From assembly GCA_015231955.1 (NCBI GenBank), contig JADGAN010000027.1, positions 7,582 through 71,581 on the forward strand: a DNA stretch of 64,000 nucleotides, given 5' to 3'. A model generated the notes under the pieces. That model ran no database searches and was not told the origin of the DNA. It worked only from the letters and a program-made list of their open reading frames with translations. Below, piece by piece: positions 38,534 through 41,633 of the stretch. The translations under genes and the position numbers were made by a program. The stretch is from Oligoflexia bacterium. Its GTDB lineage: Bacteria > Bdellovibrionota > Bacteriovoracia > Bacteriovoracales > Bacteriovoracaceae. Within the stretch, counting starts at the first letter, position 1. Each line of letters starts with the position of its first letter.

Positions 38534-40018
38534 ATGAGGGAATTTATGGTAGGGCCATTTAAAACAGTTATTCATGCAGTAGTCGCGATGACAGTTTTGT
38601 TATCCTTTGTTAGTGGAGCTTTTGCAGGCAAGAAGGTCATCACGAGCAATCTAAAAGAGGAGTATAATCCCGAATTACGAGTTGCCATTATCGGAGCGGG
38701 GATCTCTGGATTGGTTGCGGCCCACACGTTGAAGGAGATGGGTTATAAAAATGTGACTGTCTTTGAAAAGGATGATGAAGTTGGTGGAAAGATTCATACT
38801 CACGAAATGAATGATAAGATTTACGATTTAGGTGCAGTGTGGGTTTCTGGTAACTATGATAATGTAAGGCAGTTAGCTAAGCAGTTCAATGTTGATTTAA
38901 TAAAGGCGAAGGATTTAAAGGTAGCTGATTTAAAAGATAAAAGTGAGATGACGACCAATGAATACCTATTACAGCACTATAGTAAAAGTGATATTCTTAA
39001 GGCATTTTATAGATTGGGAAAACTCATGTCTCATAACCATACGGCGACGGCCGGTTTGAGTTTGCAAGAGGATCCTGATTTGGCCCTCCCTTTTGGTGAA
39101 TATATCAAAAGAAAAAAGATTGAGCCCTTTGCAAAAACTTTTCAACCTTTGGTCGTTGGCTGTGGTTACGGTTTTTATGAGGAAATTCCCGCTCTCTATA
39201 TTATGAAAATAATCAATCAAGGCTTTAATAATGCTATCGAAGGAGTCCTCAAATTCTGGCAAAATCGGGAATCAAGTTATGTTAAAAAGGGGTATCAAGA
39301 GATCTTGAGGCAAGTTGCTAAAAAATTAGATGTAAGGACCAACTCTTTGGTTTCTAAAATCGAGAGAGAAGTGATGCCTAATGGAGATCTTGCTAAAATT
39401 AAGATCACTGCTGGCGATAAAAGTTATGAATTTGATAGGGTAGTGATAACCCATCCACCCAATGCTGCAAAAGATATGATGAATCTAAGCGATGAGGAGA
39501 AACTGCTCTTTTCCCAAGTTGAAACCTATTCTTACTATGTGATTCTCTCTGAAGTGGAAGGACTTGATCCGAGTGAATGGGATGGACGTGCCATCATCGA
39601 AAACACAGGCATAGATAAAGCTGGTCATGCGATTATTTTGGCCAATCCCTATCATGAAGATAAGAGTATCTTTTTATCATGGCATCTTTCTCCTCAAGGT
39701 AGTCTTAGCGATGATGAAGTCATTCTCTCTCTAAACGAAGATCTTGCCAAAGTTGGTGGCAATTTAAAGAAAATCATCCTTATAAAAAAATATGATAACT
39801 ATTTCCCACATGTGAAAACTGAGGCCCTTCAAGGAAATTTTGCTAACGATCCTGCTGCAAGTGTTGTTGCTCCACCAGAGCAAGATTTTTATCAACGCTT
39901 GAATAGCTTACAGGGAAAGAATGGAACATACTATGTGGGAGGATTGATGAACTTTGAAAGTGCTGAGCATAGCGCTGACTTTGCGACCAAATTGATGAAA
40001 CATCACTTTAAAAAATAG
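38534..40018 (+). CDS. FAD-dependent oxidoreductase of the amine-oxidase/desaturase superfamily, with an N-terminal signal or anchor
   Basis: VAIIGAGISGLVAAHTLKEMGYKNVTVFEKDDEVGGK dinucleotide motif with trailing GG(K). Hydrophobic N-terminus. Confidence 0.8.
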   Translation: MREFMVGPFKTVIHAVVAMTVLLSFVSGAFAGKKVITSNLKEEYNPELRVAIIGAGISGLVAAHTLKEMGYKNVTVFEKDDEVGGKIHTHEMNDKIYDLGAVWVSGNYDNVRQLAKQFNVDLIKAKDLKVADLKDKSEMTTNEYLLQHYSKSDILKAFYRLGKLMSHNHTATAGLSLQEDPDLALPFGEYIKRKKIEPFAKTFQPLVVGCGYGFYEEIPALYIMKIINQGFNNAIEGVLKFWQNRESSYVKKGYQEILRQVAKKLDVRTNSLVSKIEREVMPNGDLAKIKITAGDKSYEFDRVVITHPPNAAKDMMNLSDEEKLLFSQVETYSYYVILSEVEGLDPSEWDGRAIIENTGIDKAGHAIILANPYHEDKSIFLSWHLSPQGSLSDDEVILSLNEDLAKVGGNLKKIILIKKYDNYFPHVKTEALQGNFANDPAASVVAPPEQDFYQRLNSLQGKNGTYYVGGLMNFESAEHSADFATKLMKHHFKK

Positions 40019-40160
40019 CGTAACAGAACGTAAGAAAAATAAATGCCCTTATTGAAAATTATCATTCCTATTCAATTCAATTCAATTGATTGTTTAATAT
40101 TGGGCCGCATACAGCTAAAAATTCACACGACTTTAATTGAGAAAAAAATATGGAACTTTT

Positions 40161-41633
40161 TTAATACTGTTCTAAAAGTTTGCGATAGTTTACGAGTGCA
40201 TCCACCACCAGTGCTGTGGTAAAGGCATCGGAAACCCACACCACGCCCTTACGAACGACCGTTCCGCCCGAGAAAAAGATACCACCAGGCCAATGGGCAT
40301 TAGCACGTTCGTTGTCCCAAATGGTTTTAGAGAGCAAGAAGTGAAGACCTCTTCTTAATGATTCCAGTGCTATTTCATCATGATTTTTGTTGATAACAAG
40401 ATAATTTGCTAAGGCAGCAACAGCAAAAGCGGTTGCAGAGACTTTATCGTACTCACCACGCCATCTGCGGTAGGAATTCCATTCACCTTGGTCACGTTGA
40501 TTTTCAATCAAATCAGAGATCATTTTTTTTAGCAGCGTCTCTCCAATGCAGTCTGCCCCTCGAGAGTAGGCCTTAGTGGCATTGTAAAAAAATGTATTCC
40601 AATTGGGATAGTACATTCCACATATTTTGTATCGTTTCAGAGTGATTACTTTCTTTAAATAGTCACAAGAATTATTATAACCATCATTATCCAAATTTTC
40701 TCCGTAGACAGCAAGTGCCGTGATCACGTTGGCATTAACAACACAATCGACATCATTAATACCAAAGGGCAGATAGACTTGATTCCGATGAGGAAAGAGA
40801 TCATAAATAAAGCCACCGATCCCTCTATGCTTAATATCGTCATGCTCAAACCAAGTCAAAAAAGCACCACCGAACGGGGTAATGCGACCACGTCGATTAA
40901 GGAGGTTGACTCTCGCTTCACGCAAAACATCTTTAAACTCATCAAAAAATGGAGCAATCTTTGTTGTTGGTATCTCTTGTATCTCCTGGGAGGACCACAC
41001 TTCGGGAAACAGTTCACCCAGCATATGATGATACTTCAGTGCCAAATAGGCGGTGGCGGTGTCATCCGCGTCATCAGGGACATTTTCCGCGTGGTTCACC
41101 ATTCGAACACGATACCAAATATTGTTACTACGCCTTATGAGTGGTGGATTGTCGAGAGAATTTCTCCTCTCGTCCAGCGTCCACATATGATCTCTCTTAG
41201 GAAGAAATTGCCAAAAGCCAAAAGTTTTTGTTGCGGGATTTTTATACTTAAGAATGTTGATAATAGAACTATTGAGCATAGGAATAATTTTACCGGCATA
41301 CTCTTGAGAGTACTGTTTATCTAAAAGAATTGGGGCAAGTATATTATAGATGGAAGTATTGGTGAAATTATTAGAATCGTAATCTTTTTTTCCAGCAAAA
41401 CCAAGAAGGGGTAGAGAATGCTCAATATGAATGGTCGATTCCCATTCACCGCGAAAGCGTTCAATACCGACACTCTCCTTTATTTGTGCATTAGATAGAT
41501 AAAGAAGAGAGGCATCGATAAGTTGTTTGGTTTCGCCTAAGTCTAAACTTGCCATTGTAAGAGAAGAAGAATAGATGAATAATAAAATAGTGACAATGAA
41601 AGCACGGGAAGTTGTTTTCAGATGATCTTTCAT
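40161..41633 (-). CDS. class II terpene-cyclase-like (squalene-hopene cyclase fold) protein with N-terminal signal or anchor
   Basis: NVPDDADDTATAYLAL matches the SHC catalytic DxDDTA context (YYPDVDDTAVVVWAL). QW-type motif QRDQGEW. C-terminal ...TTALVVDALVNY resembles the SHC C-terminus. Only 490 aa. Confidence 0.65.
   Translation of the reverse strand: MKDHLKTTSRAFIVTILLFIYSSSLTMASLDLGETKQLIDASLLYLSNAQIKESVGIERFRGEWESTIHIEHSLPLLGFAGKKDYDSNNFTNTSIYNILAPILLDKQYSQEYAGKIIPMLNSSIINILKYKNPATKTFGFWQFLPKRDHMWTLDERRNSLDNPPLIRRSNNIWYRVRMVNHAENVPDDADDTATAYLALKYHHMLGELFPEVWSSQEIQEIPTTKIAPFFDEFKDVLREARVNLLNRRGRITPFGGAFLTWFEHDDIKHRGIGGFIYDLFPHRNQVYLPFGINDVDCVVNANVITALAVYGENLDNDGYNNSCDYLKKVITLKRYKICGMYYPNWNTFFYNATKAYSRGADCIGETLLKKMISDLIENQRDQGEWNSYRRWRGEYDKVSATAFAVAALANYLVINKNHDEIALESLRRGLHFLLSKTIWDNERANAHWPGGIFFSGGTVVRKGVVWVSDAFTTALVVDALVNYRKLLEQY

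Follow-up and report, generated by a model that had tools for sequence, protein, structure and literature searches.

A class II terpene cyclase-like protein with a single predicted toroid and an export signal in a Bacteriovoracaceae genome

Introduction

Class II terpene cyclases that consist of a β domain only are known but rare (PMC12414744). In this study we analyze a 490-residue protein that resembles these enzymes and is encoded in a stretch of 64,000 nucleotides, which we call the window, on contig JADGAN010000027.1 (positions 7,582 to 71,581) of the Oligoflexia bacterium assembly GCA_015231955.1. An initial annotation, made from the DNA sequence, had described it as a shortened squalene-hopene cyclase (SHC) and proposed that it might act together with the product of the adjacent gene, a flavin adenine dinucleotide (FAD) protein.

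The merosterolic acid synthase MstE of Scytonema (PDB 6SBB-6SBG), a monodomain class II meroterpenoid cyclase, shares its overall architecture with the window protein, as both are formed by one β-type (α/α)6 toroid without a γ domain. Both also carry an aspartate-based motif in the general-acid position, and MstE is among the best Foldseek matches of the predicted structure (E about 2e-6, TM-score 0.65 normalised on MstE). The differences are nevertheless considerable. MstE is cytoplasmic, about 350 residues long and has a DxD motif, whereas the window protein is predicted to be exported, has a mature part of about 460 residues and a DxDDT motif. In addition, the window protein contains large inserts (e.g. 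residues 209-296), has no biosynthetic neighbours and is only about 13-14% identical to MstE. In the biosynthetic cluster of MstE, a UbiA-type prenyltransferase is encoded alongside the cyclase (PMC12414744).

The second single-toroid enzyme is the cyclase β domain ('DMS-1') of the drimenol synthase AsDMS from Aquimarina spongiae (PDB 9MHS/9M7D). Its segment N-F-P-D-D321-L-D323-T-T corresponds residue for residue to N-V-P-D-D188-A-D190-D-T of the family to which the window protein belongs, and D323 is the general acid of AsDMS (PMC12232559). The DxDT(T) variant seen in AsDMS recurs within the exported family, for example in Bdellovibrio bacteriovorus, and the host phylum of AsDMS, Bacteroidota, is also the main host phylum of the family. 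In contrast to the window protein, which is predicted to be exported and lacks a HAD domain, AsDMS is a cytoplasmic fusion with a HAD phosphatase and acts on farnesyl diphosphate (FPP) by means of an arginine-rich diphosphate site. The structural match between the two reaches a TM-score of only about 0.46-0.48.

By sequence profile, the best match is SHC of A. acidocaldarius (PDB 1GSZ/2SQC; E 6e-8), which can be aligned to the family over the β half, including the DxDDTA motif, the QW repeats and Y495. However, SHC is a 631-residue βγ didomain protein that acts on squalene as a monotopic membrane enzyme, whereas the window protein has neither the γ domain nor a counterpart of D447. The cellular setting differs as well, since the window protein is predicted to be exported and belongs to a genome that makes no squalene.

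Homology to class II terpene cyclases

The gene of the cyclase-like protein and the sequence features within it are the following:

40161..41633, minus strand: gene of the 490-residue, β-domain-only class II terpene cyclase-like protein (open reading frame, AlphaFold2, Foldseek, hhalign)
41550..41633, minus strand: predicted Sec-type signal peptide, about residues 1-28, with predicted cleavage after T-M-A (sequence, charge layout, helix 5-22 of low predicted local distance difference test score, pLDDT)
41058..41072, minus strand: putative general-acid motif D188-A-D190-D191-T192 at the N-terminal end of helix 189-208 (translation, alignments)
40728..40757, minus strand: N293-DVDCVVNAN-302, the family-specific block with the highest conservation, at the start of helix 297-309 (translation, conservation)
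40479..40499, minus strand: QW-type repeat QRDQGEW with Q379, G383 and W385 (translation, HMMER alignment to the QW repeats of SHC)

The reading frame is intact, and translation bears out the coordinates and the two motifs, DADDT and QRDQGEW, that the initial annotation had given. Judged by its profile relationships, the protein is a true, very divergent homolog of class II terpene cyclases. This homology is visible only through family profiles and not through the single sequence, which has no Pfam match at E ≤ 1, no meaningful NCBIfam match and no sequence match in PDB.

We built a profile from 30 family members (alignment A1) and searched it against PDB with HMMER. The top of the list contained class II cyclases only; SHC came first, followed by oxidosqualene cyclases, bacterial diterpene cyclases, AstC, drimenol synthase and MstE (E 0.004), and complement C3d was found at E about 1 (~1.2). 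Searched individually, 15 of the 30 members matched PF13243 weakly, one of them above the gathering cut-off, and TED and GH88 were each matched by one member (E 0.009 and 0.09, respectively). The non-cyclase (α/α)6 families, namely glycoside hydrolases, AGE epimerases and the α-2-macroglobulin TED, yielded no significant sequence-profile match, and none of them fits the protein better by sequence than the cyclases do.

Profile-profile comparisons with hhalign used ten true SHCs of 670-725 residues, taken from genomes of the same phylum, as template. A1 matched this template with a probability of 97-98% (E 3e-10 in local and 4e-14 in global mode), whereas a column-shuffled template gave 0.1%. 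The match extends over family positions 32-459 and covers the C-terminal, β-domain half of SHC; this half alone was matched with 97%, while the γ half alone gave one 68-column QW repeat only. In the alignment, NV-PDDADDTA of the family lies exactly over N.wYPDVDDTA of SHC.

Since the default local alignment stopped short of the motif, we searched the motif segment separately. With residues 130-215 or 160-210 as query against the full SHC profile, the catalytic segment was the single best match (E 0.0016-0.0018), compared to an E of about 0.5 for the shuffled control. A profile of 57 positions around the motif, searched against 177,635 PDB sequences at E ≤ 10, returned three matches: SHC, on D374/D376/D377; a capsid protein, which is spurious; and AsDMS, on the segment with D321 and D323 described above. 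The segment NVPDDADDTATAYLAL of the window protein thus aligns to the catalytic segment of SHC, as the initial annotation had claimed, and it does so beyond chance by HMMER, by hhalign and in the motif-only searches. In four independent tests DxDDT fell on the catalytic acid, with D188 and D190 over D374 and D376 of SHC and over D321 and D323 of AsDMS.

Outside this segment, QRDQGEW (379-385) and two further Q...G.W segments align with QW repeats of SHC, family Y350 is aligned with Y495 by HMMER and by hhalign, and hhalign places the N293-N302 block on the 'PDVT..VLE' helix of SHC. The C-terminal register relative to F601-Y612 of SHC differs between the two programs, and we left these residues unmapped.

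Predicted fold and domain architecture

The AlphaFold2 model of the protein is confident, with a pLDDT of 88.9 and a predicted TM-score of 0.90. It shows about twelve long helices with β-hairpin inserts that together form one (α/α)6 toroid, in which the first turn of helix 189-208 contains D190. Foldseek searches with this model had the single-toroid class II cyclases 8paj, MstE and AsDMS as top matches (E about 1e-6). Sugar epimerases and GH88 enzymes followed at E 1e-5 to 1e-3, a similarity at the level of the fold only. The fold search by itself is therefore indecisive, and it is the sequence-profile evidence that decides the question of homology.

The protein lacks the size of an SHC-type βγ didomain (about 630-750 residues) and does not reach the Pfam gathering scores of PF13243 and PF13249 that such a protein would show. 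Its architecture is that of a β-domain-only, monodomain form like MstE and AsDMS. The earlier description as a shortened SHC holds insofar as the protein is 141 residues shorter than the 631-residue SHC; the difference, however, arises because the γ domain is missing and not through truncation.

Export signal

The N-terminus of the protein, MKDHLKTTSRAFIVTILLFIYSSSLTMA, is followed by a serine after the T-M-A site. It contains a positively charged, a hydrophobic and a small-residue region in the order typical of Sec signal peptides, with a net positive charge ahead of the hydrophobic core and a net negative charge on the far side, where the flank is acidic. In the AlphaFold2 model, the N-terminal helix 5-22 has low pLDDT. 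From these features we predict that the protein is exported through Sec, with its mature part outside the cytoplasm, in agreement with the hydrophobic signal or anchor that had been noted at its start.

A hydrophobic N-terminal export segment was detected at a strict threshold in 129 of 151 evaluable family representatives, and most of those just below the threshold visibly have signal peptides, so that about 85-90% carry an export signal. In some members, the signal of the signal peptidase I type is replaced by a lipobox, and both kinds are spread across lineages. Taken together, the count, the near-misses and the lipoboxes indicate that export is a trait of the whole family.

Family and conservation

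A word-indexed search found 45 relatives of the window protein and a scan of GTDB species genomes found 217. A profile search of 1.8 billion cluster representatives yielded 2,062 matches at E ≤ 1e-3, 220 of them at E ≤ 1e-30. The carriers belong mainly to Bacteroidota (Runella, Marivirga, Emticicia, Cytophagales, Chitinophagales, Saprospiraceae, Flavobacteriales) and to Bdellovibrionota. The member in Bdellovibrio bacteriovorus HD100, CAE78992.1, bears the generic label 'prenyltransferase/squalene oxidase repeat-containing protein', and literature searches by accession, organism and annotation found no paper on any member. The family is thus large, unnamed, mostly exported and uncharacterised in the accessible literature.

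To describe conservation, we aligned 161 representatives, each standing for a cluster at 50% identity, to the family HMM (hidden Markov model). D188 is present in all 161 and the middle aspartate, D190, in 159. Position 191 is more variable (D in 138, T in 14, A in 4, V in 3), and position 192 is T or S in 151. In class II cyclases, the 'middle' aspartate is strictly conserved within a motif that is occasionally variable (PMC12232559), a pattern that the variation at D188-T192 fits. The AsDMS-type variant takes the form DADTT in the B. bacteriovorus subgroup. The family-specific block is nearly as well conserved (N293 in 160, D296 in 157, N300 in 156 and N302 in 158 representatives), the QW repeat somewhat less so (Q379 in 136, G383 in 143). 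Y342 is invariant (161/161), T260, W261, D235 and R238 are near-invariant, and thirteen aromatic positions are conserved.

This pattern bears on the possibility that the protein is a degenerate or truncated remnant of an SHC without function. Its length, the lack of a Pfam match of its own and the lack of a squalene synthase in the genome would be compatible with decay. However, the frame is intact and the predicted fold confident and compact, the family comprises more than 2,000 cluster representatives in two phyla with dozens of near-invariant positions, and a family-wide signal peptide would be unexpected for a decaying cytoplasmic gene. We consider the remnant explanation refuted by the conservation pattern and give it next to no weight.

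In a maximum-likelihood tree, the window protein lies on a long branch together with Bdellovibrionota-type sequences, where it groups with a protein from a groundwater 'Deltaproteobacteria' metagenome-assembled genome (MAG; support 100/99) and with one from a Bacteriovorax MAG (98/87), beside a clade of 55 Bacteroidota members. Only 2 of 41 genomes of the same taxonomic family have the gene. This rarity among sister genomes marks it as accessory, and in this genome it is a solitary accessory gene. Libraries of defence systems and phages contained no match for the protein.

Some subgroups have features of their own. The homolog in B. bacteriovorus (L103:6576-7868) occurs in one copy in all sampled genomes of the genus and is surrounded by housekeeping genes, with rpsA on one side and cmk/hisC on the other. 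A squalene/phytoene synthase homolog is also present in these genomes, an SHC is not. A subfamily of longer proteins with 570-660 residues (P0136, P0138, P0139, P0038, P0149, P0156) matches the family from DxDDT through to the C-terminus (E 1e-50 to 1e-60) and keeps NIPNDADDTA, and has larger N-terminal inserts and an additional conserved C-terminal tail of about 35 residues.

Metabolic context

The genome (5.6 Mb, 95% complete) groups with Bacteriovoracaceae, since a MAG that bears this label and carries a family member (L011, the same record as G209) is placed in the same GTDB family. Searches of it found neither an SHC nor a squalene/phytoene synthase (no match to PF00494); it does encode a prenyl diphosphate synthase that resembles FPP synthase and two others of the long-chain type. 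The contig carries no gene for a polyprenyl or squalene synthase; the initial annotation had seen no prenyl-diphosphate or squalene synthase in the window. An ankyrin-repeat protein (L001:2389-3387) is encoded immediately downstream of one of the two long-chain synthases, in a genome that is rich in such proteins.

Within a sample of 201 genomes of the phylum, 16 carry the exported family, and a true SHC was found in none of these. Five carriers were tested for squalene/phytoene synthase and three have it. Since carriers are without SHC and the synthase is present in part of them only, squalene made by the host is not the general substrate of the family. We accordingly reject a link to hopanoid or squalene metabolism. 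True SHC/OSC-type (oxidosqualene cyclase) proteins of 670-725 residues (L089-L098) were found in 27 of the 201 genomes, mostly in a few taxonomic families and never in a carrier.

Conserved partners elsewhere in the family

Two other proteins recur next to family genes. The first is a secreted, β-propeller-like protein of about 335 residues, which directly adjoins the family gene in 36 of 80 loci, all from Bacteroidota (L012:7425-8441, L030:7424-8437 and 34 more). It is encoded on the same strand as the family gene in some lineages, and in Runella the two genes are convergent with a 16-bp overlap. It gives weak BNR/Sortilin-like signals. The window genome does not contain it.

The second, which we call partner X, is an all-α domain of about 400 residues that accompanies family members in some Bdellovibrionota-type sequences (Bacteriovoracaceae and related groups). 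It is encoded just downstream of the family gene in one locus (L006:7361-8578), fused to the C-terminus of the cyclase-like domain in an 885-residue protein (L011:5836-8493) and in P0049, and fused to the N-terminus in P0095, so that both domain orders occur. Partner X contains an invariant W300-Y-H302 and E261-N262. It has no sequence match in Pfam or PDB, and its AlphaFold2 model, although confident (pLDDT 84.9), has no Foldseek match in PDB (best E about 1) and thus offers no clue to its function; from this model, its fold may be new. A profile search of the window genome for partner X found nothing.

Proposed function

The data presented here show the homology of the cyclase-like protein, its β-only architecture, the position and conservation of the motif, the export signal and the lack of a conserved link to the FAD gene. 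From them we infer catalysis by the protein, the type of its chemistry and the class of its substrate. We lean towards a reading in which the protein, folded as one (α/α)6 toroid and exported, carries out carbocation chemistry, initiated by an acid, on an isoprenoid-type lipid in the extracytoplasmic space. In such a mechanism, D190, the middle aspartate of D188-x-D190-D191-T192, would be the general acid. This residue is placed at the N-terminal end of an inner helix of the barrel and would lie at the entrance of a pocket lined by aromatic side chains. By donating a proton to a C=C bond or an epoxide in a lipid-soluble substrate of isoprenoid type, it would set off a carbocation reaction, either a cyclisation or a hydration. 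R238, R461, N293, D296, N300 and N302 would probably hold a polar or anionic head group.

Several observations weigh against this proposal. The Foldseek matches have modest TM-scores, at 0.45-0.5 for the query and 0.63-0.67 for the small targets, and generic (α/α)6 enzymes such as cellobiose 2-epimerase and GH88 come within about one order of magnitude in E-value. In the hhalign alignment, D447 of SHC is replaced by leucine and H451 has no assigned counterpart. The many conserved asparagine and aspartate residues would also suit a polar substrate, for example a glycan. Besides the missing squalene/phytoene synthase in the genome, there is no prenyltransferase gene near the cyclase-like gene. 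To our knowledge, every class II cyclase characterised so far acts on the cytoplasmic side, beside the enzymes that make its substrate.

In the main alternative, the β-domain fold of the cyclases was recruited for other envelope chemistry or for binding. The protein could then be an enzyme such as a hydrolase, a lyase or an epimerase, with a polar glycan or a lipid head group as substrate, or a non-catalytic binder of a lipid or other ligand, and the aspartate cluster would have been kept for acid/base catalysis or metal binding instead of alkene protonation. Its location outside the cytoplasm, away from the pools of isoprenoid diphosphates, would be natural for such a protein, and invariant polar residues such as N293, D296, N300, N302, D235 and T260 are untypical of cyclase pockets. 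The epimerase and GH88 matches in Foldseek, the absence of SHC from carriers together with the patchy squalene/phytoene synthase, and the nature of the conserved partners, a β-propeller and an all-α domain and in neither case a prenyltransferase, point the same way. Against recruitment stands that the sequence matches are to terpene cyclases only, no glycoside hydrolase family being matched apart from the one member at E 0.09. Moreover, the alternation of DxDD and DxDT around a fixed middle aspartate copies that of true class II cyclases, and many aromatic residues are conserved. Weighing both sides, we regard recruitment for a different activity as quite possible, though it is not the explanation we would back.

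Returning to acid-initiated chemistry on an isoprenoid-type lipid, its most far-reaching form would be that the family represents previously unrecognised, extracytoplasmic β-only class II terpene cyclases, by which an isoprenoid lipid is cyclised or hydrated in the periplasm or at the cell surface. We put this forward as a tentative and rather doubtful proposal. The substrate could be a polyprenyl or quinone lipid of the cell itself or, in predatory Bdellovibrionota, an isoprenoid lipid of the prey envelope.

Neighbouring genes and the proposed pair

The genes on either side of the cyclase-like gene are:

38534..40018, plus strand: gene of the FAD protein, 494 residues, amine-oxidase superfamily, with an N-terminal hydrophobic segment (PF01593, PDB 2b9w)
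41732-42487, plus strand: gene of a 251-residue protein with a signal peptide, divergent from the cyclase-like gene

The FAD gene is convergent with the cyclase-like gene across a spacer of 142 bp, and a 98-bp spacer separates the latter from the divergent gene of the 251-residue protein. The FAD protein matches the Pfam family Amino_oxidase (PF01593, E 2e-29), which agrees with its initial placement in the superfamily. An assignment to the HpnE or CrtI desaturases themselves does not hold by curated cut-offs, as the scores against HpnE (TIGR03467; 42.6 bits, cut-off 283) and crtI_fam (TIGR02734; 29.5 bits, cut-off 238) are far too low. Among solved structures, the closest relative is 2B9W, a polyunsaturated fatty-acid isomerase from Propionibacterium acnes (PMC13003489), which is matched along the full length at E 8e-25. 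The N-terminal hydrophobic segment of the FAD protein has an A-F-A site and no twin-arginine motif. This leaves two options for the protein: export through Sec, which would be unusual for a flavoprotein, or anchoring by its N-terminus.

The initial annotation had suggested that the two proteins could form a functional, envelope-located pair that modifies terpenoids. The adjacency of their genes, the hydrophobic N-terminal segments on both proteins and the fact that both superfamilies include members acting on lipid C=C bonds speak for this idea. As the genes are convergent, however, they are not co-transcribed, and in none of 80 related loci is the family gene accompanied by a homolog of the FAD gene at a distance of up to 6 kb. 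Among the 41 genomes of the same taxonomic family, the FAD gene is patchily distributed (3 genomes) and coincides with the cyclase-like gene, present in 2, in this genome only. The locus of the closest homolog (L005/L009) shows no synteny with the window and has the cyclase-like gene alone in common with it. Together with the failure of the HpnE/CrtI assignment, these comparative data largely refute a pair, which we consider very improbable. The FAD gene is a chance neighbour, unrelated to the cyclase-like gene.

The secreted 251-residue protein was also considered as a partner and rejected, as none of the 80 related loci encodes a homolog and searches of Pfam, NCBIfam and PHROG gave no match.

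Implications

For this window, the analysis serves as a correction: the gene is an accessory member of its family that stands alone, and the pairing with the FAD protein does not hold. For the family as a whole, monodomain forms, of which MstE and AsDMS are among few enzymes, bear on the origin of the βγ architecture, which is an open question (PMC12414744). The functional hypothesis is directly testable, since there are members in the genetically tractable B. bacteriovorus HD100 and in cultured Runella and Marivirga strains. Should the family indeed consist of extracytoplasmic cyclases, class II terpene chemistry would for the first time be placed outside the cytoplasm. If its members are active, the range of terpene cyclisation would come to include the bacterial envelope, and a so far unknown lipid would be expected there.

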